Source: Candidatus Omnitrophota bacterium (GTDB lineage Bacteria > Omnitrophota > Gorgyraeia > Zapsychrales > Fredricksoniimonadaceae). Taken from it: a stretch of 64,000 nucleotides of DNA. Under the pieces are notes generated by a model. It was given only the letters and a program-made list of their open reading frames with translations. It did no database searches and had not been told where the DNA came from. A program made the translations under genes and the position numbers. Shown piece by piece: positions 2,950 to 50,269 of the stretch. Position 1 is the stretch's first letter. Each line of letters begins with the position of its first letter. The stretch spans positions 88,246-152,245 of the forward strand of contig CAIOTT010000049.1 of NCBI GenBank assembly GCA_903861305.1. Reading direction: 5' to 3'.

Positions 2950-5900
2950 GTGCCACGTATGAAAACCATTATTTTTTTCAAAAAAGCATGCGGCCAGCGC
3001 CGCCCCATCGTGCTGTTTGTCCTTTTATCCTTCCTGTTGACCATCGGGATCGGCCCGGCCGGGTCGGCACGCGCTCAGGAGGCCTTTCAACTCCCGCAAC
3101 CCGGCACCCGGGTCAGTTTAAGCCCCTCTTTTATTCCGCCGCTGCTTAAGGGGGTTAAAGTTTATCCGCAGGATCCTTTCCGGCTTGATTTTATTTTGGA
3201 TGGCGGGGAGAGGCGACCTGCCGGATCTTCTCTGCATGATGATGCCACCCGCTTGATCAAATATTTCCTCGCAGCGATCACCGTCCCTGAAAAAGACCTT
3301 TGGGTGAACCTCTCCCCATATGAAAAGGACCGCATTGTTCCCGATGCCTTTGGCCAGACCGAGATGGTCCGCGATCTTCTGGCGCAGGATTATCTGCTGA
3401 AGCAGATCACCGCGTCCGTCACTGATCCCGAAGGGCAGGCGGGCAGGGAATTCTGGGCCAGGGTTTACGCTGAAGCCAGGGAGCGTTTTGGTACAGCCGA
3501 CATCCCGGTCGACACCTTTAACAAGGTTTGGATCGTCCCGGAGAAGGCCGTTGTTTACGAGACTAAGGATGCGGCGTATGTCGTGGAATCCAGGTTGAAG
3601 GTCATGCTGGAAAGTGATTACCTGGCCCAAGAGAAAAGCGTATCATCGCCACTCGCACCAGTGCCGGGGCAATTATTGCCCTCCCCCTTGTGGGGAGGGA
3701 ATGGGAGGGGGGCAGATGTCGCCAAAAACATCCTCCGTGAGATCGTCATCCCCATCCTCGAAAAAGAAGTCAATGAAGGCCGGAACTTCGCCCACTTGCG
3801 CCAGGTTTACAATTCCCTGATCCTGGCCGTGTGGTTCAAGGACAGGATCAGGTCAAGCATCTTCGGCAAAGCCTATATCGACCAGGACAAAGTCGCCGGT
3901 ATCGACATCAAGGACAGGGCTGAAAAGGACAGGATCTGGGCGCAGTACGTCGAATCCTTCAAGAAGGGGGTATATAACTTCATCCGTGAGGAAAAAGATG
4001 CGGTTTCGGGTGAAATGATCCCGCGGAAGTATTTTTCGGGCGGGATGCGCCTTGAGAATGTCAGGGAAGTTATTGTCCTTGCTCAAGAGGCGCAGCTGTC
4101 AGGGGAAGTCCCGGATCACGCCATGATCGTCCGTGCCGATATGTCAATGACCGCTGATCCCGGGATCTTCGCCAAGCCAGAGTTGATAATTGGAATTCCA
4201 GCGGAAGAAGGCATTCATTTTGAAAGACAGCGGTTGTTAAAAGACCCTGACTGGGAATTTATTAAAAGTCGAGGTGTCGATGATTTTGTATTTGGACTTG
4301 CGATGAGGAACATAGATAGGACCGGCGCTGTCCCCTTTGGGTTGAAACCATCAAAGGAAGGGCGGATCATGAATGTTGATCAATTTGAATTGATCCGCAG
4401 GGACTTTGAAAGGATCCTTAGAGAAAAAAATGGAGGAAAGAAGGAAATAACGATCTATCAATTTGGATTGGGACGAAAATTCCTGGAGACGGAAGACATC
4501 CTGAATGCATTGCAGGCGGCATTTGAAGGCCAGGGGATACTGCCTGCGCAGAGATCCATCCCGGGGACAATTCTTCCGGATGCGCAGGATCACGTGGTGG
4601 ATGCGGCTGAGAATGGGGAAGGCTCAGGCTTTGAAACAGCCCAGAAGCAGCAGCGTGAACGCGTCAGACGCAAACAGGAAGATCTGATCAAATACGCCCG
4701 ATCGCTTGCCGCCCGGTTCCCTCAATATCCCTGGCTGGCATGGGAAAGCGCGGCGATCGTCCCGTGGGGTGAAGTTGTCCGTGATACTGAACGAATGGAG
4801 CCCGATGGGCCTGTTATTCAGGACACAGAATATTTTTCATTAGAGAACCGCTGGAATTACTGGGCCAATCAGTTGGATGCGCGACGCGTGTTCCTGGACA
4901 TGCTGGCAGGATCGCTGGTGTCCATGGAAGGCGTCTCCTTTCGGGATGTCCTTGAAAAGGCGCATTCGGACCTTATCCTGGGGGAAGGGCAGGACTCTCC
5001 GTATCGCCCTGCTACCCACAAGAGTTTCTCTGCGGACAATGATCTTGTGAATATTGCCACGACCATGCGACTGTCTGTGCGCGGCCTGGAGCGCCTGAAG
5101 ACAGAATTTGGACTATTCGTGCCGCAGATAAAAGGACATACGCTTAAGCCGAAGTCCCTTTTCCCGACGATATCCTCAATATACTTAACAATGATGTGGC
5201 TTGGGTCATATGATGAGTTTGAAGCAACGAACTTTACGTTCCGGTTCGGGAACCATTCTTTAGTCATGAATTTTATCAATGCGACCCTTCGTCTTTGCGG
5301 ACTGAGCGGTATCCGGAATGGCCATTTTGATTACGATATACTTTGGGACAATGGGTTCAAAGGAAATCGTGATAAGGCTTTGGCTTATGTATCGGCTGGA
5401 CTTTCCAGGTTGGTTGCAGAAGCTGATCGCCGCAAGGCTGATCCATCCCAACTGGGTGAAGATGCCGTTGTCATGGCGCTCTCCGAGCAAGAGATCGCGA
5501 AACTTGAAACGCTTTATCCGGAGTATGATTGGCGCAATGCCGCTGTGGTCGTTTGGCCTGAATTGACGCGCCAGGCTGGTCAAAAGATAAAGAACAAGAA
5601 TCAAATGAACTATTTCGGGAATCAGGTGGTCGTCAGGAGAGAGTTTTTACATTTGGTACGCGACATATTGTCCGGTGATCTGGATACGAAGACGTTTATC
5701 GCGGCAGTCCAACGGATCCATACCTTATTATTAACAGCCACGGGTCCCTATGACCCTTCCTCGGAAGACCTTCACGAGAAGAGTTCGTCCTATCTTGAGC
5801 AGATCAAAGGCAAGTTGAGGGATGAAAGTTGGGCGCGGGCAAGATTGCAAATTATGCAAAATGACCTGGGATCGATCTTCAGCCGGGATGTCCTGACGGG

Positions 5901-6390
5901 GCCAAGGAACCGTATCGTCTCATTGATCGCCAGGTTTTATGCTGACCTTATCGTTGAACAGCGCAATCTTTTCCCGAAGGGAAATCATTCATGGGCCATG
6001 CAGCTCGTCAATACCATGCTGCGGCTTTATGGCCTCAAGGGCATTCCTCACGGGTTTCTTGATGAATTGATCAGGTATGATGAGTTCAAGACAGATGTTC
6101 CCGCAGAGATCGTGGCCCTTGTAAAAGAAGCGAATAAGAATGTTCAATTTGATGAGGCCTACAAAGATCCCGCCATGGAAGAAAAAGGCGGCATCGACTT
6201 GACCCGCGATACGATGCGCCTCAAGGTCAACAGCGACGGCCAGGGGGCCCGATTCAACTTTGATCCTGCCATGGTCCGGCGCCTTGAGAGCGCTGCGGGC
6301 ATCACCCCGGTCATCATCGATATCTGTCCGATGACAACATCGGTGCCGGCGTTCCTGGGGAGCAAGAACGGCCTTTCCGAGACAAGATAA
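2950..6390 (+). CDS. Member 1 of a large secreted-protein paralog family: signal peptide, conserved N-terminal domain, tandem GNHS...LRLxGL repeats, conserved C-terminal GGIDL domain
   Basis: The 1146-aa ORF starts at GTG 2950 or ATG 2959. The signal-peptide-like N-terminus ends ...GSARAQEA. Residues 44 to about 370 align with the N-termini of the ORFs at 25721, 40823 and 46658 (LIKYFLA.LTVPEKDLWVNLSPYEKDRIVP...FNKVWIVPEKA...LKVMLESDY...EKEVNEGRNFA.LRQVYNSLILA.W...IPRKYFSGG). The last ~80 aa (GIDLTRD...FDPAMVRRLESAAGITPVIIDI) align with the C-termini of the paralogs. Confidence 0.8.
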   Translation: MPRMKTIIFFKKACGQRRPIVLFVLLSFLLTIGIGPAGSARAQEAFQLPQPGTRVSLSPSFIPPLLKGVKVYPQDPFRLDFILDGGERRPAGSSLHDDATRLIKYFLAAITVPEKDLWVNLSPYEKDRIVPDAFGQTEMVRDLLAQDYLLKQITASVTDPEGQAGREFWARVYAEARERFGTADIPVDTFNKVWIVPEKAVVYETKDAAYVVESRLKVMLESDYLAQEKSVSSPLAPVPGQLLPSPLWGGNGRGADVAKNILREIVIPILEKEVNEGRNFAHLRQVYNSLILAVWFKDRIRSSIFGKAYIDQDKVAGIDIKDRAEKDRIWAQYVESFKKGVYNFIREEKDAVSGEMIPRKYFSGGMRLENVREVIVLAQEAQLSGEVPDHAMIVRADMSMTADPGIFAKPELIIGIPAEEGIHFERQRLLKDPDWEFIKSRGVDDFVFGLAMRNIDRTGAVPFGLKPSKEGRIMNVDQFELIRRDFERILREKNGGKKEITIYQFGLGRKFLETEDILNALQAAFEGQGILPAQRSIPGTILPDAQDHVVDAAENGEGSGFETAQKQQRERVRRKQEDLIKYARSLAARFPQYPWLAWESAAIVPWGEVVRDTERMEPDGPVIQDTEYFSLENRWNYWANQLDARRVFLDMLAGSLVSMEGVSFRDVLEKAHSDLILGEGQDSPYRPATHKSFSADNDLVNIATTMRLSVRGLERLKTEFGLFVPQIKGHTLKPKSLFPTISSIYLTMMWLGSYDEFEATNFTFRFGNHSLVMNFINATLRLCGLSGIRNGHFDYDILWDNGFKGNRDKALAYVSAGLSRLVAEADRRKADPSQLGEDAVVMALSEQEIAKLETLYPEYDWRNAAVVVWPELTRQAGQKIKNKNQMNYFGNQVVVRREFLHLVRDILSGDLDTKTFIAAVQRIHTLLLTATGPYDPSSEDLHEKSSSYLEQIKGKLRDESWARARLQIMQNDLGSIFSRDVLTGPRNRIVSLIARFYADLIVEQRNLFPKGNHSWAMQLVNTMLRLYGLKGIPHGFLDELIRYDEFKTDVPAEIVALVKEANKNVQFDEAYKDPAMEEKGGIDLTRDTMRLKVNSDGQGARFNFDPAMVRRLESAAGITPVIIDICPMTTSVPAFLGSKNGLSETR

Positions 6391-6398
6391 CCCAGCGT

Positions 6399-6426
6399 TT
6401 GACAAACAAATTTCTCCCTATATAAT
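6399..6426 (+). promoter_or_regulatory. Near-consensus sigma70-type promoter upstream of pgk (TTGACA, 16-nt spacer, TATAAT)
   Basis: ttgaca at 6399-6404 and tataat at 6421-6426. An AGGAG RBS follows at 6453-6457, ahead of ATG 6468. Confidence 0.6.
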
Positions 6427-6467
6427 TAAACGCTCAGGTTGAGTGCACCCTTAACGAAGGAGATGTT

Positions 6468-7688
6468 ATGAACAAAATGACCGTCCGCGACGTTGACCTT
6501 AAGGGAAAAAGGGTCATTATCCGCGTTGATTTCAATGTCCCGCTGGAAGCCGGCAAGATCACGGATGATATCCGTATCCGCGCCGCCGTACCGACCGTCA
6601 AGTATGCGCTGGACCATGGCGCTGCCAGGGTCATCCTGATGAGCCACCTGGGCCGTCCATCCGGCAAGGGGTTTGAACAGGAATTTTCGCTCACGCCCGC
6701 GGCCAAACGCCTGGCGGAATTGATCGGCCAGCCCGTGAAGCTTTTGAGTGATTGCGTTGGTGACGGTGTCAGGAAAGACCTGGCGGCGGCCCCGGAAAAG
6801 CTGGTGCTGCTGGAGAACCTGCGTTTTCACAAGGCCGAAGAAAAGAACGACCCGGCCTTCGCGAAGGAACTTGCGTCCCTCGCCGATATCTATGTCAATG
6901 ACGCTTTCGGTACGGCGCATCGCGCGCACGCCTCAACGGCGGGTGTGGCGGCATATTTGCCCGCGGTCAGCGGTTTCCTGATCGAGAAAGAACTCCAGTA
7001 CCTCGGCAAGGCCGTGAACAATCCCGAACGCCCGTTCGTTGTCATTCTCGGCGGGGCCAAGGTGTCGGATAAGATCCTTCTGATCGAAAATCTGCTTCAG
7101 AAAGCCAACGCGATCCTGGTCGGCGGCGGCATGGCGTATACCTTTTTAAAAGCTCAGGGGATCAATATCGGGGACTCCAAGCTTGAAAAAGACAAGGTCG
7201 ACCTGGCCAAGGCCCTGCTTGAAAAAGCGAAAGTCGCCGGGGTCCAGATCGTGCTGACCAGTGATTTTGTGATCGTTCCGAACTTTGATTCCAATGATGC
7301 AAAAATCTCCGACACCATCCCTGATGGTTTCATGTCCCTCGATATCGGCCCCAAGACCAGGGAAGCGTTCAAGGCTGTCCTTTCCAAAGCCAGGACCGTG
7401 GTATGGAACGGGCCGCTGGGCGTGTTCGAACGCGACGCATTCCTCCAGGGGACGAAAGATATCGCCCTTTACCTCGCCGCGCTGAAAGACAAGGGTGTCC
7501 AGACGATCATCGGCGGCGGTGATTCGGCCGCGGCGGTGCTGAAGTTCGGCCTGGATGACAAGATGACCCACATTTCCACAGGCGGCGGGGCATCGCTCGA
7601 ATATCTCGAGGGGAAAGAACTTCCCGGGATCACGGCGCTCAATGACAAGAAAAAACCGGCGGGCGGTTGCGGCTGCGGCTGCCACTGA
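6468..7688 (+). CDS. pgk: Phosphoglycerate kinase
   Basis: The N-terminus [20 protein letters not shown] and the overall PGK architecture are recognisable. There is an unusual C-terminal tail ...[13 protein letters not shown]. Confidence 0.95.
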
Positions 7689-7710
7689 TGCAAAGGATAA
7701 CAGGAGACTT

Positions 7711-8466
7711 ATGAGAAAGAAGATCATTGCGGGGAACTGGAAGATGTACAAGAACCCGGCAGAAGCCCTCGCGCTTGTGGCCGGGCTGAAAAAGGAGATC
7801 GGCGCACAGTCCGCGGTCGAGGTTGTTGTTTGCCCGCCATTCGTTGATCTGGCGGCGGCGGTCCAGGCGGCGGCGGGTTCGACCATCGCTTTGGGAGCGC
7901 AGAATCTTTTCTGGGAGACCGAGGGGGCATTCACCGGAGAGATCTCGGGTGCCATGATCAAGGCCTCAGGTGCAACCTATGTTATCATCGGCCATTCCGA
8001 GCGCCGGCAGTATTTCGGCGAGACGAATGCGACCGTGAACAAGCGCCTGAAAGCGGCGTTGGCGTGCGGGTTGAATCCCATTGTGTGCGTGGGCGAGAAT
8101 CTCGCCGAGCGCGAGGCTGGCAAGACCTTTGATGTGGTGAAAGACCATGTCACCGGATCCCTGGCAGGTTTGACCAAAGAGGATATGAAGACGGTGGTCA
8201 TCGCGTATGAGCCTGTCTGGGCCATCGGGACGGGCAAGACCGCGACCTCAGCCCAGGCCCAGGAAGTCCACAAGTTCATCCGTGACCTTCTGGCCAAGCT
8301 GTTCGACCAGGCCACGGCCGAGGCCACGCGCCTGCAGTATGGCGGCAGTGTCAAGCCCGAGAACACGGCGGAGCTGACCGCGCAGCCCGACATCGACGGC
8401 GCGCTTGTCGGCGGGGCGAGCCTCAAGGTTGACTCTTTTTCAGCGATCATCAGAAATACAAAATAA
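7711..8466 (+). CDS. tpiA: Triosephosphate isomerase
   Basis: The N-terminus MRKKIIAGNWKMYKN is typical, and the catalytic-region motifs AYEPVWAIGTGKTAT and IIGHSERR are present. The ORF track extends the start upstream to 7642, overlapping pgk. The ATG at 7711 fits better. Confidence 0.9.
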   Translation: MRKKIIAGNWKMYKNPAEALALVAGLKKEIGAQSAVEVVVCPPFVDLAAAVQAAAGSTIALGAQNLFWETEGAFTGEISGAMIKASGATYVIIGHSERRQYFGETNATVNKRLKAALACGLNPIVCVGENLAEREAGKTFDVVKDHVTGSLAGLTKEDMKTVVIAYEPVWAIGTGKTATSAQAQEVHKFIRDLLAKLFDQATAEATRLQYGGSVKPENTAELTAQPDIDGALVGGASLKVDSFSAIIRNTK

Positions 8467-8476
8467 GGGGATAGTC

Positions 8477-25596: not shown

Positions 25597-25635
25597 AAAG
25601 GCCTGTTTGGGGAAACTCAAACAGGCCTTTTTTCA
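25597..25635 (+). terminator. Rho-independent terminator after rpoD
   Basis: Stem aaaggcctgtttg / caaacaggcctt followed by tttttca. Confidence 0.65.
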
Positions 25636-25720
25636 TGCCTCCCGATTTGGCACTGATAATAAGTATATGTTATCTTTTAATCCAGGTGGACGCAGTTTGT
25701 GCCAACAGGGAGGGGAGGCG

Positions 25721-27418: not shown

Positions 27419-27433
27419 GATGGGCGTCTTGCC

Positions 27434-27808
27434 ATGGAATCCTGGATCAAGAGGGAGGCGCATAAGAGGGATCTTTCCCCTTTTGTGGTCAAGATCTTTT
27501 CCGGCATTAAGGAGCATTTTCAGGAGACGCAGGAGTTGGTGCAGCTTTCTGGAGGGATCGAAAAATTCGATTTCGTAATTAATACGGACGAAACAGAATT
27601 TCCAACAATAAATAAAGTGAATAATGGCGGTATTGACCTTAATTCAACTCAAATCGACCTAACTAGCAAGGGCAATGGCGATGCTGATAATTTCGATATT
27701 GATCCCGCTTTGCTCAAACGCATGCAAAATGCACCCGGTGTAACGCCTGTCATTGTGGGCATCCATTCTCTGGACAGTTTGCAGCAGTTCCTGGAAATTC
27801 ACCTGTAG
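27434..27808 (+). CDS. C-terminal GGIDL-type domain fragment of family member 2, in the same frame as 25721-27418 and separated from it only by TGA 27416-27418
   Basis: The 124-aa ORF contains NNGGIDLNSTQIDL...NFDIDPALLKRMQNAPGVTPVIVGIHSL, which aligns with the C-termini of the ORFs ending at 6390, 46642 and 50269. 25721 and 27434 are both in frame 2. Confidence 0.55.
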   Translation: MESWIKREAHKRDLSPFVVKIFSGIKEHFQETQELVQLSGGIEKFDFVINTDETEFPTINKVNNGGIDLNSTQIDLTSKGNGDADNFDIDPALLKRMQNAPGVTPVIVGIHSLDSLQQFLEIHL

Positions 27809-27930: not shown

Positions 27931-28004
27931 GGGCCTATAGCTCAGTCGGTTAGAGCAGGAGACTCATAATCTCTTGGTCCCTGGTTCGAGTCCAGGTGGG
28001 CCCA
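27931..28004 (+). tRNA. tRNA-Met (anticodon CAT; could be an elongator, or the Ile2/lysidine type)
   Basis: gggcctatagctcagtcggttagagcaggagactCATaatctcttggtccctggttcgagtccaggtgggccca. The cloverleaf is consistent: a 7-bp acceptor stem, a GTTCGAGTCC T-arm, and no encoded CCA. Confidence 0.8.
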
Positions 28005-28038
28005 GATTTGTTATAATATTGTTCCAGGCCGTTATTTC

Positions 28039-28115
28039 GGACGCATAGCTCAGCTGGTTAGAGCGCTGCCCTCACATGGCAGAGGTCGAAGGTTCAAGTC
28101 CTTCTGCGTCCACCA
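28039..28115 (+). tRNA. tRNA-Val (anticodon CAC)
   Basis: ggacgcatagctcagctggttagagcgctgccctCACatggcagaggtcgaaggttcaagtccttctgcgtccacca. The anticodon loop is ctCACat. The 3' CCA is encoded. Confidence 0.8.
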
Positions 28116-29087: not shown

Positions 29088-29557
29088 TCTCCTGGGAGAT
29101 CTTTTCTGACGGGGCCTGCAGCGGTAATCCGGGCCCCGCGGCCATCGGGGCCGTGATCCGCCGGGATGGCGTGATCGTTAAAGAGATATCCGAACCTATC
29201 GGCGTTGCGACAAATAATATCGCTGAATATCGGGCGTTCATCCGCGGGATCGAAGCGGCGCAGGCACTTGGCGCCGAGCAGGTCAAGTTACGCACCGACA
29301 GCGAGCTTTTGTTTTATCAGATCAAAGGCAAGTACAAAGTCAAGCATGTCAATATGAAGCCTTTGTATGAAAAGGCTGTGGCGCTTTTAAAGCGTTTCAA
29401 GAATGTCGAATGCAAGGTGGTCCCCCGGGAGCAGAATCAGGAAGCTGACCGGCTGGCCACATCCGCTCTTAAAAAGAATGTTTTGCAGAACGCAAGCCAC
29501 GACGACCGCCCCGATGTGTTCATCATGGGGGAGGAAAGTCCGAGCTCCAAAGGATAG
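29084..29557 (+). CDS. rnhA: Ribonuclease H (type I)
   Basis: ISWEIFSDGACSGNPGPAAIGAVI...TNNIAEYRAFIRGIEAA...NQEADRLA contains the conserved DEDD catalytic-residue context. The last ~25 codons overlap the 5' end of rnpB. Confidence 0.85.
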   Translation: MISWEIFSDGACSGNPGPAAIGAVIRRDGVIVKEISEPIGVATNNIAEYRAFIRGIEAAQALGAEQVKLRTDSELLFYQIKGKYKVKHVNMKPLYEKAVALLKRFKNVECKVVPREQNQEADRLATSALKKNVLQNASHDDRPDVFIMGEESPSSKG

Positions 29558-29868
29558 CGCACCCAGATAATGCTGGGGACGTTCTGTTTTGCTTACGCAA
29601 ATGCAGGGCGGGCGAATAGAGCCACAGGGACGAACCCCTTCAGTGGGGGGTGAAACGGGCGATCTCTGCGCGGAGCAAGGCCAAATAGAGGAGAGATCCT
29701 GCTGCCATGAAAGTGGCCGGGATGCGGGGCTATCCGTCCCGTTATATCCTCGGGTAGGCCGCAAGAGTCCTGGAGGCAACTCCGGGAGTAAGTTGGATGG
29801 TCGTCCTTTCCGGTCAGCCGCAAGGCTCACCGAAAAGAACAGAACTCGGCTTATGTGGCGAGCGTTCA
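29486..29868 (+). ncRNA. rnpB: RNase P RNA (bacterial type A)
   Basis: The P4 strand GGAAAGTCCGAGCTCC starts at 29533. The 3' consensus is ...GAACAGAACTCGGCTTA. P1 pairing is agaacgcaagccacg (29486-29500) with tgtggcgagcgttc (29854-29867). Both ends are approximate to within ±10 nt. Confidence 0.8.
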
Positions 29869-29919
29869 GCAAAAAGTGAAAAAATGATTTTCTAAAGTTG
29901 AACAAACAAGGAGAAGTAG

Positions 29920-40661: not shown

Positions 40662-40692
40662 TGCGGCTACATCCAGGCGAGGACCCTTAATG

Positions 40693-40728
40693 GATAAGGC
40701 GGCTCGAGGAAGCCGCCTTATTTTTTTT
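40693..40728 (+). terminator. Rho-independent terminator
   Basis: Stem ataaggcggct / agccgcctta followed by T8. Confidence 0.6.
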
Positions 40729-40735
40729 GCCTGCC

Positions 40736-40764
40736 TTGACAATAAAAATTTAGTCGTATATATT
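40736..40764 (+). promoter_or_regulatory. Sigma70-like promoter (TTGACA, 17-nt spacer, TATATT) in an AT-rich region upstream of the giant family member
   Basis: ttgaca at 40736-40741 and tatatt at 40759-40764. Confidence 0.45.
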
Positions 40765-40822
40765 TCTATACATATAACTACATTTATTGACATATTTACG
40801 CCATTTATAAACAGGATTTCTT

Positions 40823-43800
40823 ATGTTTATCCGAAGGTTTTTATCATGTTTTGTCTGTTTTTCGTTTGTTTCTACCTGCCTTATCCCTCCTGCTTACGCT
40901 CAAACAGCCTTTAAGTTGCCTCAACCAGGGGCCATGGTAGGTCTTTCAAGTAGTTTCATGCCTGTTGTCTTGAAGGGCGTGCACCTTCATCCTGAAAATC
41001 CGCTTCTATTTGATTTTATTGTAGATGCCGGGGACTCGGGTTTTTCGTTTGAAGGCCCGCAGTTCAAGGCTGAGTCCGAAAGGCTCATTAAATATTTCCT
41101 CGCTTCGCTCACGGTCAAGGAAGGCGACCAGTGGGTAAACCTTTCTCCCTACGAAAAAGACCGCATGATCCCTGAAGACCTGGGGAAGACCGAACTGGGC
41201 CGCGACATGCTGGCGCAGGATTACATCCTCAAGCAGTTGACCGCTTCGCTGGTTTATCCGGAGAAGGGCTTAGGCAAGGAATTCTGGGCCAAGGTGTATG
41301 AGAAGGCCCAGGCACAGTTCGGCACCATCGATGTGCCGGTGGATACTTTCAATAAAGTCTGGATCACAGCCGACAAGGCCCGCGTCCTGGAACGCAACAA
41401 TACCGCTTATGTGGTTGGCGCGCACTTGAAGGTTATGTTGGAATCGGACTATATGGCGGCCGCGCAGTCGTCCGGCGTGGGTAGGGGCGGGTCTGTGACC
41501 CGCCCACTTGACAACGCTCAAGAACTGACCAAACAAGTCATGCGCGACGTCATCATCCCCCAGATCGAAAAAGAAGTGAATGAAGGCAATAATTTCAGCC
41601 AATTGCGCCAGATCTTCTACGCCATGATCCTGTCCACCTGGTACAAGCGGGCCCTTAAAACCGCCCTCCTGAACCAGGTCTACAGCAACAAGTCCAAGAC
41701 CAGCGGTGTCGAGAACGCCGATCCGGGCGTGAAGGAAAAGATCTACGCCCAGTACCTGGAAGCCTACCGCAAGGGCGTGTTCAACTATATTAAGGAAGAG
41801 ACGAACGCCGCCGGCGAAACCATCCCGCGAAAATATTTTTCAGGCGGTTTGGACAGAAATTTGAATGTGGATCAGGCGATGGAAGTGATCGATAAGGCGG
41901 CGGCGGGGGATTCTTTAAAAGGAAAGAAAGAAGCCGTGGTCACTGCTGTAATTGATGCTGCAGAGGCATTTAATACTTTATATTTGAGTGAGCAAGGAGC
42001 GCTTTTACTGAGGTTGATCAGGATATTCAAGAGATCTGATTTTCATTGGGGAATATATAAAACGCCTGTTTCAGTTCGCTTGATCGACGGGCAGGGGGTA
42101 GCGAAGAAGGTCATTACGGTCACCCGTGAAGATTGGCAGAATGGTATTGCCGGCATATCAGATAAGTTGCAACATCTTGTGAGTTTATCAACGGATGTGC
42201 CTTTATGGATGATCAAGCTGAAGAAGTCGCCGTACTCGCAGATATTGTCTGTTGACATTACCCCATTCACTTACGAGGGTCTGGCCAGGGAGTGGAATCA
42301 AGGGCATGTCATATCAACGTATTTGGTCAGCCCGCAGAACAAGGGATTTTCATATCAGATCAAGATAGAGCCTTTACAACCGGACGGGCTTGCAGATAAA
42401 AATAAAAATATTATTTGGGATGCTGGAAGCAAGACGTTGCGGATCTTTCTGGATTACAACACGCCGGTGGGGCAGTTCGACCGGCAGAAGTTCTTTGACG
42501 GGATCATTGCGATGGTCGCGGAATTGCAAAATGTGAGCATCAAGAAAGAACTGGAACACAATAAGACACGTTTGGCGCATTTTTTGGGATTGAATATCGA
42601 GGCGGAGCGCGTTCGTGATCTGCGTGAAAAAAGGGATCTGTTGCATAACAAGACAGGCATAAGACCCGAAGAATTGACGTCAGTTAAGATGGAACTGGCC
42701 CTGGCGGAATTTCAATTCGGTGGCGATGTTGTGGACCTGAGCGATATGCCCGGTCCAGAGCGGCAGGCAGCGGTGACACAAGCGATCCGATATGGGTTGA
42801 TCCCCTTGTTGGCGGCACGTCAGGATGTTCAGGAGGTTTTGTCGCATTATCCGCAAGCATTGTCTGCCAGGAGGGTCGGGCCGGGAGAGGCTAATCAGGC
42901 CGTCCTCTCCGGAGCCGGGGTGATCCTTGTGTCGCCGGATGTTACGGCCAATGAAATCAAAGAAGCCCGGGGATTGTCGTTGCGCGTGAGATATAAACCG
43001 CTTGTTGTGATGGTGACAAAAGATGTTTTGAACGTGGACCGGGAGTCTCTTGATCTGGACGGAAAATACGATGGCATTGATCTGAGATTTAGAGGGAGTC
43101 TCCCGGCAGTATTGGATAAATCCAGTGAGGTAGGAAATCTTATAAAATATATTAAAAGAAAGTCTCCGATACCGATGATCATGATTTCCGGAGATGTGAA
43201 CGACGAGAATCGGGATCGTGTGGCTAATGGGGTCAAGGGGGAATTTCATCTGACATCCATGCGTGCCTTCGATGAATTAGAAAACATTGCGCATACGGCG
43301 TTCCAGCACGATGATGCCATGACAAAAGAGGAAGAGACGGGCGCTGCTGGCAAAATTTCCCCGGAAGCGCAAAATATCCTGGATGAAATAAAAAATTACG
43401 CCGTGATTCCCTTGCAATATTGGCCTTTGGATGTGACCACATGGTATGGTGTGCGCACGGCGCAATTGATCATTAAAGAAGGTTTTGAGGACGATCCTGA
43501 GGCGCTTTCAGCGTTGATAGAGGGCGCGATCAAGAGGAGCGGCGCAGGTTTCTCTGCAGCCAGAATGAAAGATGGGCGATCTCTCCATGATGTTGCCTGT
43601 GAGATCGGGTTGGTGGATCCTTCAGACGGGAATATGAATGTGGGCATGGTGCGTATTCTGGAAAAAATTATATTTTATGGCGACGTCATGTTTCAAAAGA
43701 GTGATTTCGATGAACTTCCGAATAAAGCACATGCTCTGATGGAGAGCAGTAACAGGGATGGAGGGATAACGGTTCCATCAGATCTTTCTTTCAAGGATGC

Positions 43801-46642
43801 AGTCGGTTTGTTGAACCCGATGGAGACGCTGTTTAAGGCATATATCAAATTAGAGCAAGGTTGGAAGTTGATCGATGATCAAATGAAAGCTATTGATGTT
43901 GTAAGTAAGATGCTTGGCATTCAATCAAGGGAGCTTATTGAGAAAATGAAATCGGCCCAATTGATGGAACAGCCGGATGGTCAACCCTTTAAGAAGGCGC
44001 TATTGGAGCTTATTTATCCACTGGGTGATTCTGTCAGGATGGTGGGTATCAAGTCTGAATTCAAGTTTTACGGGACATTGCAGCAGATCGATTTGAAGAA
44101 ATTATATCAGGAGCTTCCTGGGGTTTTCGGGAATAATGCTGCAGGGTTTAATAAATCAGAACAATGGGATGCGTTGATCGCCGGCGCGCACAATGACATT
44201 TATAGCGCGATTGAACAAAGCCGTCGGGGCGAGCTTCAAGGACCCGCGAAGCATCAGGCTGGAGAACCTTCTGATGTTGTGCTCCCGCAAGGGGGAGCGC
44301 AAGATCCGTTGGTCAATTGGTTTGTCACCAGGATCATGTCGCGGTTGAAGTGGTTTATTCAGGGCAACAAGAAGATGATCCTGGAGAATGATGTTGAACA
44401 GCTTGAGGCGCATTTCAAGATCCGGCTCATGGCGAGAAATCCTTCAGAAGCCGATCCTGAGGGCCGGGTTATTTTTGCGCCTGTAGGCAGTTCTAATGAT
44501 GCGGCGCAAGAAAAGAAGGACGCGTCAGACCATCCTGAAATGAACCCTGCATCCCGGCTTTTGCTGCCGTATACAACAACAGAAATGGCGAAATTTCAGG
44601 TCCAGGAAATTTTGCTTGATCTTGATCTTAAGGAGAAAGTTATCCCGATCCTGTTGCGCGACGTCAAAGAGGACGTTCGGGATAATATTTCTTCTGTAGA
44701 AGATAAACAGGCTTTTCTGGTCGCTGTATTGAACTCTGCTTTTAAAGCATACTGGATGAGGCATGCGATCGGTCATCCCGCGGCTGAACTGATTTTTTCC
44801 TTCTTGAAGGAGTTGTCCGGCAATGATGTCAAACGCATGGATCTTGTGCGATCAAAAATGTGGCGGGATCAGTTTTCTGTGTATCTGGGGCGTGTTGCCA
44901 AGAGGATGGTGGATGGGGTGGTCGCTGGTCCTGAAAAAACAAACAAGGAACCCTTGACCCTGAAACCAGGCATGACATTAGAGGATGCCATGTCGGCCGT
45001 GGCTGATATTGTATTGGATCCGGCGGATACTTCAGCGCGTCTTGTGGCGATGGCGGATGAGATAATGAAATTTCTCAACCAGGACGATTTTATTAATTTT
45101 GAAAAGAAAGAGTTCCTTCTGGGTGTTCTTAACCTGAGCAGGGAAGCCCGTGAAGTTTGCCGTTATGAGAACAACTCCACTAAGATGAGCCTTATCGAAG
45201 CGTTCGTTCATAAATTGACGCGTGGGGCCATTGGAAATGTGGAATTGGATCGTTATGTATTGGATCCGGATGAGTTTACACAACAATGGGACAGTGTTGT
45301 CGATGAGCTTCTCGGACCTGCACCTCTTCCAGATCAGCCTAAAAAGAGACCTGGATCCCCGATGTTGACGCCGGAAATGTCCCTGGCGTTGGCGATAGGG
45401 ACGGTGAATGAGGCGTTTCACAGGAAAGATATGTCTTATAATGATTATTTGTTGTTGCTCCGTGATGTAAAGCAGTATGTCACGCATAATATTTCTTCTG
45501 TCCACGACCAACAGTATTTTTTGTTCACGGTTTTACATCAGGGGCTGTCGATGTACGGGTTGTACTGGCATGCAAGATCATCTGCGGCGGCACCCATTGC
45601 TTTATTCCTGAAAGAATTTTCCGGCGACGTTGTTGTGGCAGAGAATATTGTGCGATCAAGGATCAGACAAAACGCGTTAGATAAGCTCCTGGACGATGCT
45701 GTCAGAAGTATATGGAGCGGGATCTTTCTGGAAAAACTTCAGAAGATGGCGTTAGAGCCGCGGGTCCTGGGCGAATTAAATAGGATCTCACAGGTCGCGT
45801 TGGCAGACGGCCCATTTGACGGGAATTCCTGGGTGTGGGGGGCGGCGCAGAAGATCGGGTTATTGAAGATCACCCCAACGGAGTTCCTCGTTGACCTGAC
45901 CATGGCGCGTTTTTTGGATAATGCGATAACCGTTGATGAGAAGGATCGCGGACGGGGGCATATCCTTGTGCCTGGGGAGCAGAGGCTTGTGCCGGAGATG
46001 ACGACGGCGCGCGCGGTGGATCTGGTCGATCAGATCTTCCTTGCTCCCGATGTCACCCCAGGGCGTCTTGTGGCGCTGGTTGATGAAATACGGAGATTCC
46101 TTGGTCAGTCGAGGTTGTTGAGGGATGACAAAATGGAGTTCCTGGAGCATGTATTTTTTAGTAGTGTCGAGACGCGTGAACTTGCCCGAGACAACAAAAA
46201 TACCCGGAAAATGAACGCCATGGCCGTATTTCTCAAGGAACTGTCGGGTGGTGTTATTGGGGAAGCGCAGATGGACCGTTACGCGCTGTCTCGTAATATG
46301 CAGCCCGATTATTATGGGGACCCGGATGCATTTAAATGGCAATGGCGCAAGGTTGTGGATGACATTGTGAGATCAATGGAGCAATCAGATCTGGCGCAAG
46401 ATACGCCTGCAGCTAAAGTCAACGGTGGTATCGACATGAATGGGAAGAAGATGACACTTGATGTGGCACGTGAAGGCAAGGGCATTGAGATGAAACTCGA
46501 CCCGGCGATGGTCGCGCGGTTCGAGCGCGGCGATTTTACGGGGGTCGTGCCGGTCATTCTCAAGGTCACGCCCATTGCCAGCCCTTTGCCGCTATTGGGC
46601 ATGGGCACGTCCATGGACATTCAAGATAAGATCAGCGGGTAA
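40823..46642 (+). CDS. Member 3 of the secreted-protein paralog family: 1939-aa giant protein with signal peptide, conserved N-terminal domain, a long lower-GC central region with internal repeats, and conserved C-terminal GGIDL domain
   Basis: Signal peptide MFIRRFLSCFVCFSFVSTCLIPPAYAQTA. The N-terminal domain aligns with the paralogs (KLPQPGAMVGLSSSFMPVVLKGVHLHPENPLLFDFIVD...IPRKYFSGG). Four internal repeat units share the consensus [FL]xKELSG / hxKLTRG (...ELIFSFLKELSGNDV, ...PIALFLKEFSGDVV, ...AMAVFLKELSGGVIG, ...IEAFVHKLTRGAIG). C-terminus VNGGIDMNGKKMTLDV...LDPAMVARFERGDFTGVVPVILKV. Confidence 0.8.
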   Translation: MFIRRFLSCFVCFSFVSTCLIPPAYAQTAFKLPQPGAMVGLSSSFMPVVLKGVHLHPENPLLFDFIVDAGDSGFSFEGPQFKAESERLIKYFLASLTVKEGDQWVNLSPYEKDRMIPEDLGKTELGRDMLAQDYILKQLTASLVYPEKGLGKEFWAKVYEKAQAQFGTIDVPVDTFNKVWITADKARVLERNNTAYVVGAHLKVMLESDYMAAAQSSGVGRGGSVTRPLDNAQELTKQVMRDVIIPQIEKEVNEGNNFSQLRQIFYAMILSTWYKRALKTALLNQVYSNKSKTSGVENADPGVKEKIYAQYLEAYRKGVFNYIKEETNAAGETIPRKYFSGGLDRNLNVDQAMEVIDKAAAGDSLKGKKEAVVTAVIDAAEAFNTLYLSEQGALLLRLIRIFKRSDFHWGIYKTPVSVRLIDGQGVAKKVITVTREDWQNGIAGISDKLQHLVSLSTDVPLWMIKLKKSPYSQILSVDITPFTYEGLAREWNQGHVISTYLVSPQNKGFSYQIKIEPLQPDGLADKNKNIIWDAGSKTLRIFLDYNTPVGQFDRQKFFDGIIAMVAELQNVSIKKELEHNKTRLAHFLGLNIEAERVRDLREKRDLLHNKTGIRPEELTSVKMELALAEFQFGGDVVDLSDMPGPERQAAVTQAIRYGLIPLLAARQDVQEVLSHYPQALSARRVGPGEANQAVLSGAGVILVSPDVTANEIKEARGLSLRVRYKPLVVMVTKDVLNVDRESLDLDGKYDGIDLRFRGSLPAVLDKSSEVGNLIKYIKRKSPIPMIMISGDVNDENRDRVANGVKGEFHLTSMRAFDELENIAHTAFQHDDAMTKEEETGAAGKISPEAQNILDEIKNYAVIPLQYWPLDVTTWYGVRTAQLIIKEGFEDDPEALSALIEGAIKRSGAGFSAARMKDGRSLHDVACEIGLVDPSDGNMNVGMVRILEKIIFYGDVMFQKSDFDELPNKAHALMESSNRDGGITVPSDLSFKDAVGLLNPMETLFKAYIKLEQGWKLIDDQMKAIDVVSKMLGIQSRELIEKMKSAQLMEQPDGQPFKKALLELIYPLGDSVRMVGIKSEFKFYGTLQQIDLKKLYQELPGVFGNNAAGFNKSEQWDALIAGAHNDIYSAIEQSRRGELQGPAKHQAGEPSDVVLPQGGAQDPLVNWFVTRIMSRLKWFIQGNKKMILENDVEQLEAHFKIRLMARNPSEADPEGRVIFAPVGSSNDAAQEKKDASDHPEMNPASRLLLPYTTTEMAKFQVQEILLDLDLKEKVIPILLRDVKEDVRDNISSVEDKQAFLVAVLNSAFKAYWMRHAIGHPAAELIFSFLKELSGNDVKRMDLVRSKMWRDQFSVYLGRVAKRMVDGVVAGPEKTNKEPLTLKPGMTLEDAMSAVADIVLDPADTSARLVAMADEIMKFLNQDDFINFEKKEFLLGVLNLSREAREVCRYENNSTKMSLIEAFVHKLTRGAIGNVELDRYVLDPDEFTQQWDSVVDELLGPAPLPDQPKKRPGSPMLTPEMSLALAIGTVNEAFHRKDMSYNDYLLLLRDVKQYVTHNISSVHDQQYFLFTVLHQGLSMYGLYWHARSSAAAPIALFLKEFSGDVVVAENIVRSRIRQNALDKLLDDAVRSIWSGIFLEKLQKMALEPRVLGELNRISQVALADGPFDGNSWVWGAAQKIGLLKITPTEFLVDLTMARFLDNAITVDEKDRGRGHILVPGEQRLVPEMTTARAVDLVDQIFLAPDVTPGRLVALVDEIRRFLGQSRLLRDDKMEFLEHVFFSSVETRELARDNKNTRKMNAMAVFLKELSGGVIGEAQMDRYALSRNMQPDYYGDPDAFKWQWRKVVDDIVRSMEQSDLAQDTPAAKVNGGIDMNGKKMTLDVAREGKGIEMKLDPAMVARFERGDFTGVVPVILKVTPIASPLPLLGMGTSMDIQDKISG

Positions 46643-46657
46643 TAAAAAGGAGCCTCT

Positions 46658-49600
46658 ATGTTCTTCAGAAGGATCATGTCAATTATTGTTTGCCTGGCGT
46701 TTATCCTTACCAGCCTGACCCCTTCAGCATATGCCCAGACAGTCTTTAATTTGCCTCAACCCGGCACCATGGTCGATCTTTCCGGTGCTTTTGCGCCGGC
46801 TGTTCTGAAAGGCGTAACCATCCATCCCGCGGATCCTTTGTTGTTTGATTTTATCGTCGATAACGGCCAAAGCGGGCTTCAGGGCCAGGCGCTGACCGAT
46901 GAGACCACCAAGCTGGTGAAATATTTCCTGGCGGGGCTGGCAGTCCCTGAAAAAGACCTTTGGGTCAACCTGTCGCCGAAAGAAAATGAGCGCGTCATGG
47001 CGGATGACCTGAGCCGCACGGATGTTGGCAGTGCGATGCTGGCGCAGGATTATATCCTGAAACAAGTGACCGCGAGTTTGATGTATCCGGAAAAAGACCT
47101 GGGGCGCAGGTTTTGGGACGAGATCTACAAGCGCGCTTATGCGCAGTTCGGCAATACCAATATGCCGGTGGATACTTTCAATAAGGTTTGGATCATGCCG
47201 GCGGAAGCAACGGTTTATCAGAACGGGAATGACGCGTTCGTCGGCCGTGCGCAGCTTAAGGTGATGCTGGAGAGTGATTTTGAGGCTGCGAAAGGCGTGG
47301 TCTCCCGGCAGGCGGCTGCCGATATCGAGCTGGCCAAGGGTGTTGTCCGTTCCGTGATCCTTCCTGTTTTGGAAAAGGAAGTCAATGAAGGCAGGAATTT
47401 TGCCCCCCTGCGCCAGGTGTTCCATTCCATGATCCTGGCCGGGTGGTACAAGAATGCCCTCAAGGAAAGCTTGCTCGCCCGGGTCTATGCCAACACGAAC
47501 AAGGTCAGCGGCATCGAGATCCCCGAGAAGGATGCCCGTGAAAAAGTGTACGCTCAGTACATGGAAGCTTACCAGAAGGGCGTGTACAACTATGTTAAGG
47601 AAGAGTTGGACCGCAATACGAACGAAGCCGTGCCCCATAAGTATTTCTCTGGTGGTATCACCGAGTTAAGTGTTGATCCCGGGAAGGCTGATGTGTCACA
47701 GGTGGATTTCAAGGGGGCTTCTACGAAGCAGTCTTATAGATTGGATGTTTCCACAGACGGGGCGCAGGAGTTGAGCCGGGCAGATCAGAAGGTTCTCGAT
47801 GGGGCAAAAACGATCATAGAAAGCTTGTTGACGGAGTCATACCAGAACGGCGATATTACGGATACCGTTTATAAAAATGCCCTTGCGAATACGTACAAGA
47901 ATCTTGTTGAATGGACGCAGGATCCGGATATTTATCGCATCGATCCCAGCATCCGTGCGGCCAATCTTGCGGCGATCCGTGACGGCCGTTGGGATGACAT
48001 TATAGAGGCGTACCGACAGGATATCCTGTTCGGGACAGCCGGCATCCGTGGAAAAGCGGTCCTTTCAGAGAAAGAATTGCAGACATTCAAGGCCGAGGGG
48101 CCCTTGGGGAATTTCCTGAAAGGTCCCAATACGATCAACACCTTCAAACTCTTGAAGACCACGCAGGGCCTCATCAAAATGGCCAGGGAGACGGGCTTAA
48201 AACGGGTTGTCATAGGCTATGACAGCCGTATCGGCGGCGCGGCATTCGCGGACATGATCGCGCGTCTTTTTATTGCCCAGTCCACGCCGGAGCATGAGTT
48301 CAAGATATTCCTTTTTGATGAAGCAAGCCCTTTTCCGGAGCTTTCTTACGGCATAACGACGGATGTGGTGAAAGGCGACATCGGTTTGCTCATTTCTGCG
48401 AGCCACAATCCCGCGGATTACAATGGCTATAAGATCACGCTGGGCAACGGGGCACAGTTGAACCAGGCCAGCAAAAATCAGGTCACGGCGGCCATTGATC
48501 AGGTCAGGAATTCCGACATTGTTATGGCTGCTTCGCTGGCCGACGCAAAACCAGGACAGCTCGTGTGGCTTGGAGGCAGTGAGGCGCTTGAGGGTAAGGA
48601 TTATTACGGGTTCGAGCGCATTGATATGCACTCATTGCATGTTGAACAAGTAAAGAAATTCATCTTGAACAAGGAAGTTGTCGTTGCACATTCCGGTGAT
48701 TTGAAGTTCGGCTTTGCAGCGTTCAATGGCGCGGGATTTAAGGCCGTGCCACGATTGTTGAGGGAGACCGGGTTCACCAACGTCAAGGTTATTGAGAAAC
48801 TTCAGAAACTCGACGGCAGTTTTCCGGCGTGGAAGTTTGGCGAACAACCGGATCCCGGCGACCCTATTTCTGCGGATATTGCTGTGAAGGAGTTCATTGC
48901 AGAATACGGCCAGCAGGTGTTTGATCTGCTGGATGCTTTGTTCGGCACTGATCCTGATGCGGACAGGATGGGGTTGAGCGTCAAGGTTCCCGAGTCCCAG
49001 CAGAAATATTTCGGGAAGTACCGGTTACTTTCCGCGAATGACGTTTGGACATTGTTAATATGGTATCGGTTGTCCATGAAAAAGCAAATGGGTCTGCTGG
49101 AAAATCCTTCTAATCATGCGGTCGCATTCAGCCACGTAACAACAGATGCCATTGAAGCTGTGGCGAAAATGTTTGGCGTCGATGCTATTGGGAAAATGCT
49201 TGATGTGACAGGCACCCTTGAAAAAGGAGATTACCTGGCGGGCCGCAGGACATGGGTTGGGTTCACTTACCTTGCGGATATATTGGAAGATGCGTATCAG
49301 ATGGGAAAGTTCGTTGAAATGCTGGCGGAGGAGTCGAACGGTGTGAGCGTGCAGGGCCATACTAAGGAAAAGGATGGGACGCTCGCCGTGATCCTTGTGG
49401 CTGAAGTTGCGGCGTATGCCAGATCTCAGGGTAAAACTTTGTTTGAACTCCTGGATGATGTCTATGCGCTGATTGGTCATTATGCCACGGCCAACAAGCC
49501 GTTGCCAAGGGTCGGGTCGTTCGAGAAAGCGGCCGGGGTCTCAGAAAAGATCAAGATCATTAAAAGATCCCAGGAATGGGGCACGAAGGCCAATGAGGAT

Positions 49601-50269
49601 GCGCATACGGACCATCCGTTCATGATCGCGGGGAAAAAGGTCCTTGGCGCTGTCGAGTTCGCTTCCGGCCGTATCGATAAGACCCATTACGCCGGTGTTC
49701 CGGATGAAGGGGTTCGTTTCTTTTTTGAAGATGAGCAGCTCCAGCCGGGGGATCCTTTTACCAATAGCCATAATTACATCACGATCCGCGCTTCAGGAAC
49801 GTCACAGGCGCTGCGGTTCTACACACAGATATTTTCCCGGGATGTGAGCCCGGAGCAGAAAGCCAAAAATTATGCTGAGGCTGAGCGCGTCGCGCTTGAA
49901 GCGCAGCGACAGATACTTGAGGAAGTCAACCTTGAGAAACATCTTCCTCCGGTCAGAGCGCAGCTTGAAAGTATTTATGCGCAAAACGAGCCTGTCGCTG
50001 ATAAAGCCCAGGATCTGGGCGGTATCGACCTCGGCCAGGGCAATTACCTCAAGGTCATCGCGACGGGAACGGCGGGCGTCCCGCAATTTGACCCTGCCCA
50101 GCTGAAACAGTTGCAGAAAGACCTGCGCGGGGTCATCCCCGTTCCGGTGGGCGTTCCTGTGCCGGTCAGTGTGCGGCCGCTCCTGGGGCTGGATCCTAAT
50201 AGCGGCAACGAGAACCTCCAGCTGAGCCAGATGGGGCCATTGACGTTTGAGGTCGAACAGGACGCATAA
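46658..50269 (+). CDS. Member 4 of the secreted-protein paralog family, fused to an alpha-D-phosphohexomutase (phosphoglucomutase/phosphomannomutase) domain
   Basis: Signal peptide MFFRRIMSIIVCLAFILTSLTPSAYAQT. Conserved N-terminal domain. Phosphohexomutase motifs: GTAGIRGKAV, the active-site Ser loop SASHNPADYNGYKI, the metal loop GTDPDADRMG and the phosphate loop IRASGTSQALR. C-terminus DLGGIDLGQGNYLKV...FDPAQLKQL...GVIPVPVGVPV. Confidence 0.8.
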   Translation: MFFRRIMSIIVCLAFILTSLTPSAYAQTVFNLPQPGTMVDLSGAFAPAVLKGVTIHPADPLLFDFIVDNGQSGLQGQALTDETTKLVKYFLAGLAVPEKDLWVNLSPKENERVMADDLSRTDVGSAMLAQDYILKQVTASLMYPEKDLGRRFWDEIYKRAYAQFGNTNMPVDTFNKVWIMPAEATVYQNGNDAFVGRAQLKVMLESDFEAAKGVVSRQAAADIELAKGVVRSVILPVLEKEVNEGRNFAPLRQVFHSMILAGWYKNALKESLLARVYANTNKVSGIEIPEKDAREKVYAQYMEAYQKGVYNYVKEELDRNTNEAVPHKYFSGGITELSVDPGKADVSQVDFKGASTKQSYRLDVSTDGAQELSRADQKVLDGAKTIIESLLTESYQNGDITDTVYKNALANTYKNLVEWTQDPDIYRIDPSIRAANLAAIRDGRWDDIIEAYRQDILFGTAGIRGKAVLSEKELQTFKAEGPLGNFLKGPNTINTFKLLKTTQGLIKMARETGLKRVVIGYDSRIGGAAFADMIARLFIAQSTPEHEFKIFLFDEASPFPELSYGITTDVVKGDIGLLISASHNPADYNGYKITLGNGAQLNQASKNQVTAAIDQVRNSDIVMAASLADAKPGQLVWLGGSEALEGKDYYGFERIDMHSLHVEQVKKFILNKEVVVAHSGDLKFGFAAFNGAGFKAVPRLLRETGFTNVKVIEKLQKLDGSFPAWKFGEQPDPGDPISADIAVKEFIAEYGQQVFDLLDALFGTDPDADRMGLSVKVPESQQKYFGKYRLLSANDVWTLLIWYRLSMKKQMGLLENPSNHAVAFSHVTTDAIEAVAKMFGVDAIGKMLDVTGTLEKGDYLAGRRTWVGFTYLADILEDAYQMGKFVEMLAEESNGVSVQGHTKEKDGTLAVILVAEVAAYARSQGKTLFELLDDVYALIGHYATANKPLPRVGSFEKAAGVSEKIKIIKRSQEWGTKANEDAHTDHPFMIAGKKVLGAVEFASGRIDKTHYAGVPDEGVRFFFEDEQLQPGDPFTNSHNYITIRASGTSQALRFYTQIFSRDVSPEQKAKNYAEAERVALEAQRQILEEVNLEKHLPPVRAQLESIYAQNEPVADKAQDLGGIDLGQGNYLKVIATGTAGVPQFDPAQLKQLQKDLRGVIPVPVGVPVPVSVRPLLGLDPNSGNENLQLSQMGPLTFEVEQDA

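Follow-up and report, generated by a model that had tools for sequence, protein, structure and literature searches.

Bacteria of the phylum Omnitrophota are ultra-small, widespread and uncultured, and are believed to rely on other microbes or to hunt them as prey. In a 64-kb stretch of DNA from a Candidatus Omnitrophota bacterium (hereafter, the window), we found four genes, W1–W4, whose products share a Sec-type leader, a conserved N-terminal module of ca. 330–370 amino acids (aa) and a conserved module of ca. 60 aa at the extreme C-terminus, with a variable middle, or cargo, between them. The same layout recurs in thousands of proteins across the phylum. The reading we favour, tentatively and at slightly less than even confidence, is that these proteins form an Omnitrophota-specific, multi-copy, exported family of polymorphic cargo carriers or effectors, whose conserved ends would serve as shared trafficking or docking handles. 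In its logic, such a family would resemble a polymorphic effector arsenal mounted on one delivery chassis.

Conserved ends and variable cargo

Hidden Markov models (HMMs) were built here for the N- and C-domains and run against all six-frame open reading frames (ORFs) of the window. Exactly four ORFs matched the N-domain model (E 2.9e-163, 6.4e-153, 2.5e-145 and 6.6e-139; next best, 0.47), and the same four matched the C-domain model (E 4e-31 to 8e-27; next best, about 1). An earlier reading made from the letters alone (the sequence-only reading) had reported these four ORFs, and all are present where it placed them. The conservation that it described survived proper alignment: the N-terminal regions (first ca. 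370 residues) are 45–57% identical among the four and contain ca. 100 invariant columns, within which every landmark motif listed earlier falls. The C-domains are less alike, with pairwise identities of 27–41%. The last ca. 60 residues common to the four (GGID[LM]...L...G...DPA...G..PV) make up a shared C-domain somewhat shorter than the 70 aa originally proposed, although its presence in the same four ORFs was correctly recognised.

This architecture extends far beyond the window, and the term ‘four-member family’ was an understatement. An N-domain query found 1,415 proteins; of the 8,000 candidates scored for full-length W1, at least 4,569 reached E ≤ 1e-10; and a 35-sequence C-domain profile matched 4,270 representative clusters (E ≤ 1e-3) among 1.84 billion proteins, the domain lying at the very C-terminus in all 150 of the matches listed. 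In GTDB, with one genome per species, at least 586 loci were confirmed, nearly all of them in Omnitrophota metagenome-assembled genomes (MAGs) and several per MAG; the database relatives carry no annotation beyond hypothetical protein and come from Candidatus Omnitrophota/Omnitrophica MAGs. Across 79 loci from other genomes, 96 ORFs carried the N-domain, 71 the C-domain and 67 both, and in those with both the order of leader, N-domain, variable middle and C-domain was invariant. Thus, the anchor–cassette–anchor arrangement noted in the window holds and generalises. ORF lengths across these loci ranged from 736 to >3,700 aa, and tandem pairs or triplets like W3–W4 were common. The C-domain ended up 0–24 aa from the protein end in 113 of 120 full-length relatives. 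The window members had been called ‘giant’, which does not suit them: they are large (0.7–1.9 thousand aa, kaa), and it is relatives elsewhere that exceed 3.7 kaa. In four loci (L042, L061, L067 and L069), N-domain ORFs overran the 10 kb that had been fetched (>3,650–3,720 aa). The family may grade into the published giant proteins of Omnitrophota. Among 2.9 million viral contigs only three matched (L082–L084 from IMG/VR; N-domain identity, 51–54%); these are probably cellular or prophage-flanking DNA, and a phage origin of the family was rejected on this count.

The cargo is hyperdiverse. Clustering of 95 cargo middles by BLAST yielded 80 clusters, so cargo is almost never shared, which agrees with the earlier proposal of interchangeable cassettes; relatives in other genomes do carry other middles. 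A Pfam survey of 60 cargo regions (25 commonest families), together with the precomputed Pfam lists of 120 relatives, revealed an overwhelmingly cytoplasm-type content. Central metabolism was represented by PGK (1e-107), hexokinase, PGM, transketolase, PPDK_N, EPSP synthase, Glu/Ala dehydrogenases, an epimerase and an aldo-keto reductase. Other enzymes included radical SAM proteins, some of which have a B12-binding domain, numerous methyltransferases, GNAT, HAD, NUDIX, a His-phosphatase (PGAM-like), an APH-type kinase, Zeta toxin and Fic; signalling and nucleic-acid functions were represented by HATPase_c, CheY, CheR, SNF2 helicase and HTH, and repeats by HEAT, TPR and pentapeptide families. 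Dockerin had no match in the four window proteins and was absent from the top 25 families of the 60 cargo regions and from the lists of the 120 relatives.

The cargo of the four window members illustrates this range and fits the outlines of the four middles given in the sequence-only reading. The GNHS...LRLxGL repeats of W1 correspond to a duplicated module of ca. 240 aa (F..GN[NH]S..MN..N..LRL.G..GI.HG), which also directly precedes the C-domain in at least 12 further members of the family. It thus makes a third conserved module, not always present, for which no known relative could be detected. Fic was considered as a candidate identity for this module because of the GN[NH]S motif, but is not supported: the module has no Pfam match, a 12-copy profile found no Fic structure in PDB, Foldseek with the W1 model was empty, and the His and Arg of the Fic motif HxFx(D/E)GNGRxxR are missing. 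W2 carries a P-loop kinase-like module (Zeta-toxin/uridine-kinase-like), as had been suspected, and its intact homologue P0229 has a Zeta_toxin Pfam assignment. The repeat-bearing middle of W3 contains a tandem duplication within the last ca. 600 cargo residues (E 2e-24). In W4, the phosphohexomutase domain is confirmed by matches to Pfam PGM_PMM domains I–III (scores of 78.4, 33.0 and 30.0 bits; thresholds, 22.5, 29.3 and 20.7). The catalytic loops SASHNP (phosphoserine), DPDADR (metal), AEESNG (sugar-binding) and RASGTS (phosphate) can be read in the sequence, and the cargo aligns to PDB 1tuo. To judge from these motifs, the W4 cargo is a divergent alpha-D-phosphohexomutase that looks catalytically intact.

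Leaders, end modules and their evolution

Leaders were judged by direct reading and by family-wide counts. Among 238 complete leaders, 235 had a hydrophobic core and 231 had K/R in the n-region upstream of it; a cleavage site of the form [AVS]x[AG]↓[QEDAS] (AxA↓Q-type; the arrow marks the cut) was found in 189, with Q at +1 in 153. A positive n-region, a hydrophobic h-region and a small-x-small site, as expected for Sec and signal peptidase I, are therefore present in the four window leaders and throughout the family, and the signal-peptide-like starts noticed earlier turned out to be a general feature. From canonical Sec-type leaders only, we infer that the members are probably exported; the scaffold dedicated to export or display that the sequence-only reading proposed is accordingly putative.

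The N-domain had been described as belonging to no known family, and this assessment was borne out. No Pfam or NCBIfam model matched either end domain in the four window proteins (C-termini at E ≤ 0.01), a permissive Pfam scan of the N-domain in 70 members gave only a sub-threshold similarity of one helix to DUF896, and a PDB sequence search found no match to either domain. Modelled with AlphaFold2 from 70 aligned sequences (predicted local distance difference test, pLDDT, 77; predicted template modelling score, pTM, 0.69), the N-domain shows three beta-hairpins interleaved with long helices, a mixed alpha/beta topology that matched no PDB fold. A full-length W1 model (pLDDT 62) gave nothing below E 0.7 in Foldseek against PDB, and a known family for the N-domain was rejected on all of these searches. 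The modelled N-module may thus represent a previously unseen alpha/beta fold, and the predicted structures offered no clue to function.

The N-module usually runs ca. 40 residues beyond ..RKYFSGG, to a D-x-A-M-[IV]-V strand. D-x-A-[ML] occurs within 45 aa after the N-domain in 64 of 118 proteins (54%) and within 40 aa before GGIDL in 27 of 110 (25%), compared with a rate of 3.3% in cargo windows, and an invariant Gly-Gly lies at both cargo junctions (e.g., window positions 4096–4230 and 6150–6185). The D-x-A-M/L and Gly-Gly junctions are a possible processing site. The idea that the post-N junction is a degenerate copy of the C-domain (GG-x23-DxAM) was rejected, as hhalign showed nothing past GG.

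The two ends and the middle behave differently in evolution. Proteins whose N-domains are 79–86% identical to that of W2 carry unrelated cargo of different lengths; homology breaks at ..KYFSGG (+0–45 aa) and resumes at GGIDL. Across 133 proteins, N- and C-domain distances were correlated (Mantel r = 0.44; maximum 0.16 in 2000 permutations), suggesting that both ends move or change as a pair around a middle that is exchanged. The N regions of the window paralogs are only 65–72% identical in DNA, with longest exact matches of 14–28 nucleotides (nt), yet N-domain protein identity stays at 45–86%. The paralogs are therefore old and have been kept by purifying selection rather than arising through recent duplication. 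A recent exchange, in this genome, of the cassettes that the sequence-only reading called ‘swapped’ is at odds with these values, and recent gene conversion or cassette shuffling among the window paralogs was rejected on the same grounds. The GC content at third codon positions (GC3) of the cargo was ca. 0.10 below that of both conserved ends (in 57 and 50 of 67 genes from the related loci; p 1.6e-10 and 1e-7), and in the window it was also below that of housekeeping genes.

The interruption of W2 requires separate consideration. Its in-frame TGA recurs in three public assemblies, and the downstream piece is called as a separate 124-aa ORF in other assemblies. The gene had been correctly described as split by this codon, although its length from 25721 is ca. 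695 aa and not about 730 aa; its C-domain is encoded past the TGA, in ORF 27419–27805. Recoding of the TGA was considered and judged the less likely reading: the stop is real in the three assemblies, other split members use TAA or TAG, and the intact 754-aa homologue P0229 aligns straight through the TGA position by BLAST with no Trp, Cys or Gly there. These observations make a nonsense mutation or split gene more likely than recoding, and the favoured interpretation of W2 is a nonsense or split allele of recent origin. Interruptions are not rare in the family. Four other loci (L001, L031, L064 and L080, 1451–10390) contain separate N-bearing and C-bearing ORFs divided by TAA, TAG, TGA or a frameshift, which suggests frequent decay or two-piece versions. 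C-domain proteins apparently without an N-domain are mostly fragments; for example, P0288 is ended by a contig edge, and upstream of P0335, in the same frame and across a TAA, lies an 848-aa ORF that has a leader and N-domain.

The window genes and their surroundings

The coordinates of the four genes and their neighbours are given in Table 1, in which the gene-context annotation covers the window up to 31.8 kb and from 40.2 kb on. The four genes sit in an ordinary chromosome among housekeeping genes, and nothing in the annotated window resembles a dedicated island. Any tie between the cargo-carrier family and the GspE/PilB-type ATPases downstream of W4 is conjectural. A leaderless, ordinary pgk lies with tpiA directly 3′ of W1, and PGK is an exported-type cargo in other family members. 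In the case of PGK in this genome, at least, the fused enzymes would thus be additional to the ordinary one.

Table 1. Family members and neighbouring genes in the 64-kb window (positions of the window; blank cells, no value reported)
Feature	Position	Strand	Description
Before W1			Sugar transferase, Wzy
W1	2950–6390	+	1146 aa from GTG at 2950; public gene call P0128 starts at ATG 2959 (1143 aa); signal peptide ends ..SARA↓QEAF (P0128 numbering); orphan cargo region of ca. 690 aa
W1 N-domain	3109–4095	+	aa 51–379 (P0128); ends ..IPRKYFSGG; HMM E 9e-153
W1 repeated module	4580–6170		Two copies of the ca. 240-aa module
W1 C-domain	6181–6360	+	aa 1075–1134 (P0128); GGIDL...FDPAM...ITPVIIDI...; HMM E 1.5e-29
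pgk, tpiA	6468–8466		After W1; followed by an Opp-type ABC transporter and a TPR protein
Between the W1 block and W2			GlmU-like enzyme, SMC, CvpA, DnaG, RpoD
W2 first piece	25697–27418	+	P0001, 573 aa in public assemblies; ORF start at 25607 or 25721; signal peptide, N-domain, TGA-truncated kinase cargo
W2 stop	27416–27418		In-frame TGA
W2 second piece	27419–27808	+	In frame past the TGA; remaining kinase-like cargo and C-domain (HMM E 4e-31)
tRNA-Met, tRNA-Val	27931–28115		Directly after W2
RNase P RNA	29490–29869		Bacterial class A, 144 bits; downstream of W2, as are YebC, RuvC and RuvA
W3	40823–46642	+	1939 aa; signal peptide ..PAYA↓QT; N-domain aa 42–361; orphan cargo of ca. 1500 aa, tandemly duplicated towards the end; C-domain aa 1870–1932
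W4	46658–50269	+	1203 aa; separated from W3 by 15 nt; signal peptide ..SAYA↓QT; N-domain aa 41–350; phosphohexomutase cargo (PGM_PMM I–III at aa 476–936); C-domain aa 1123–1183
Downstream of W4			PG_binding protein, PfkB, RNase T, LpoB, DsbA, Memo/AMMECR1, FtsW
GspE/PilB-type secretion ATPases	60303–63832		Two in tandem (T2SSE and MshEN domains), ca. 10 kb past W4

Proposed role, alternatives and known systems

In the cargo-carrier reading, a Sec-type signal peptide would take each protein over the inner membrane and be cut at the AxA↓Q site. The two conserved ends could then act as common handles recognised by a shared, putative component of the envelope or of a partner cell, so that the proteins become exposed at the surface, are released or dock. 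Such recognition is suggested by the strict position of the ends, by the strong purifying selection on them and by their co-variation. The middle would be freely replaceable cargo, mostly cytoplasmic-type enzymes and repeat scaffolds, acting outside the producer cytoplasm, and probably in or on the cells that these host-dependent nanobacteria use as hosts or prey, as the biochemistry of the cargo and the lifestyle of the phylum suggest. Omnitrophota have been reported to be ultra-small and host-dependent (PMC10066038). Much of the cargo needs ATP, NAD, S-adenosylmethionine (SAM), Fe–S clusters or DNA, which places its site of action most sensibly in or on a partner cell. A stronger version, in which the N- and C-modules are the two signals of a new Omnitrophota-wide delivery route placing hundreds of cytoplasm-type enzymes per lineage on or in the host or prey (among them DNA-binding proteins, kinases, and glycolytic and radical SAM enzymes), is possible but doubtful.

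Several observations weigh against the cargo-carrier reading. The cofactors, ATP and substrates of radical SAM, B12-binding, helicase and glycolytic cargo are not supplied by the periplasm or medium, and the reading must therefore assume entry into another cell. Dedicated neighbouring machinery or an immunity gene was looked for and rejected: no secretion or sorting machinery linked to the family was found in the annotated window or the 79 related loci, where the commonest neighbouring gene family occurs in only six, and no immunity-like genes were seen downstream of members, which counts against a classical toxin function. Furthermore, the C-domain is poorly resolved in the full-length W1 model (pLDDT 39–66).

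Other explanations account for parts of these data. The proteins might remain on the producer's own envelope, with the N-module binding the wall or outer membrane in an SLH-like manner, the C-module serving as an outer-membrane translocation signal like the C-terminal domain (CTD) of type IX secretion system (T9SS) substrates, and the cargo working at the surface or in the periplasm. A Sec leader combined with a conserved domain at the extreme C-terminus is indeed the T9SS substrate layout, aromatic and polar side chains (W, Y, N, E, K, R) abound among the invariant N-domain residues, just as they do in modules that bind walls or glycans, and HEAT, TPR and pentapeptide cargo could provide binding surfaces. 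However, neither end matches a T9SS CTD, SLH, dockerin, LysM or other anchoring model, and a DNA helicase and ATP-, NAD-, SAM- or Fe–S-dependent cargo have no obvious cell-surface substrate; we regard self-display as rather unlikely. Alternatively, the C-module of one protein could dock into the N-module of another, following the logic of cohesin–dockerin or donor-strand pairing, to build an extracellular or periplasmic multi-enzyme fibre or matrix. The constant pairing and co-varying subtypes of the N- and C-domains would fit such head-to-tail assembly, as would a C-domain that is not confidently folded alone in the model, which is expected of a fold-on-binding module, and related Omnitrophota proteins reach enormous size with the same enzyme types strung in one chain. 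Co-inheritance explains the co-variation equally well, though, and the structural searches brought up nothing resembling cohesin, dockerin or pilin folds; we regard this assembly as improbable.

An internal role, in which the leader sends enzymes to the producer's membrane or to a compartment (internal or enlarged periplasmic) where they serve the cell's own metabolism and the ends act as assembly or regulatory domains, appears quite improbable. It would explain why much of the cargo belongs to central metabolism (hexokinase, PGM, PGK, His-phosphatase/PGAM-like, PPDK, transketolase) and why the W4 mutase appears from its motifs to be catalytically intact, and a 2026 preprint (10.64898/2026.06.07.730766) interprets many of the long proteins of Omnitrophota as anchored in the membrane and as cytoplasmic in their enzyme content. 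Yet leaders with a positive n-region, a short h-region and AxA↓Q are the signature of cleaved exported proteins and not of anchors, an ordinary leaderless pgk–tpiA pair is kept beside W1, and cargo turns over among close relatives far too fast for core metabolism. It is very unlikely that the family is decaying or selfish, its ends serving a cassette-capturing element as handles for recombination and many of its members having no function. Split members are common (W2, L001, L031, L064 and L080, with TGA, TAG or TAA) and the lower GC3 of the cargo relative to both ends and to housekeeping genes points in that direction; nevertheless, the ends are conserved in protein and not in DNA, no recombinase or mobile-element gene linked to members was found in the annotated window or the 79 loci, most members are intact ORFs of 0.7–3.5 kaa, and catalytic motifs are retained, as in W4.

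The cargo-carrier family is a concrete molecular candidate for how Omnitrophota act on their partners. The two HMMs provide a simple sequence marker with which the payloads of any genome can be catalogued, and they add two conserved domains absent from Pfam and NCBIfam, with no solved structural relative. If export is true, the family would comprise Sec-exported forms of enzymes that ordinarily stay in the cytoplasm; if the delivery-route version is true, a modular ‘enzyme injection’ arsenal could allow nanobacteria to drain their partners or to reprogramme them.

Among known systems, the closest in taxonomy are the giant and long proteins of Omnitrophota itself (‘Archaeovorin’, ‘Dockerin-type’ and ‘multi-enzyme metabolic clusters’), for which two papers report signal peptides and the same cargo Pfams (methyltransferase, HATPase_c, GNAT, HAD, PGM/PMM, radical SAM, hexokinase, HEAT, TPR, NUDIX and PPDK_N; 10.1101/2023.11.21.568195; 10.64898/2026.06.07.730766). 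The window proteins differ in having no dockerin, C39, S8 or transmembrane bundles and in being 10–100 times shorter. The present results provide a defined architecture to which the long and giant ‘multi-enzyme’ proteins of Omnitrophota can be tied, and no description of either end domain turned up in the portions searched of the Omnitrophota literature, including these two papers. Cellulosomal enzymes are likewise Sec-exported enzymes of many kinds with a common C-terminal docking module of ca. 60–70 aa; however, the C-domain described here has neither a dockerin match (PF00404) nor a dockerin-type repeat pattern, the cargo is not glycoside hydrolases, and no cohesin-bearing scaffoldin was identified.

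The T9SS substrates of Bacteroidota, including the TANFOR polymorphic toxins (PMC7073777), also combine a Sec signal peptide and a conserved extreme C-terminus with variable domains between. No window protein matched T9SS C-terminal domains (TIGR04183/TIGR04131, Por_Secre_tail) or TANFOR at E ≤ 0.01, the family sits in another phylum, and no T9SS machinery genes (sprA/porV/porU etc.) were seen in the annotated window. In addition, the variable part is central here and consists mostly of housekeeping-type enzymes, whereas TANFOR proteins carry C-terminal toxins with immunity genes. Polymorphic toxin systems (CdiA/TpsA, Rhs, MuF; Zhang et al. 2012, PMC3482391) resemble the family in joining a trafficking module to a hypervariable payload, in occurring in several copies per genome and in showing unrelated payloads in close relatives, here those with 79–86% identical N-domains; some payloads of the family (Fic, Zeta-toxin-like kinase, GNAT, NUDIX) are classical conflict domains. 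In contrast to toxins with the payload at the C-terminal tip, the payload here is internal, with a conserved module on either side, and conservation extends to the C-terminus. Neither downstream immunity genes nor spare cassettes were found (no neighbour family in more than 6 of the 79 loci), and what follows the members in the window is pgk, tRNAs, a further member or a gene for a PG_binding protein. The window proteins contain no two-partner secretion (TPS), Rhs, PAAR, LXG or similar domain, and many payloads of the family are glycolytic or biosynthetic. For TpsA in particular, there is no Haemagg_act Pfam match, and the N-domain is predicted to be mixed alpha/beta with long helices and not a beta-helix. 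The class of architecture, a conserved delivery module with a variable payload, is already known, and it is the two end modules, the double bracketing, the housekeeping-enzyme payloads and the phylum-wide scale that appear undescribed in the libraries and papers searched. Although every sequence-based search for membership sets the family apart from polymorphic effectors and T9SS/TANFOR substrates, by analogy it appears to follow the same logic as both.

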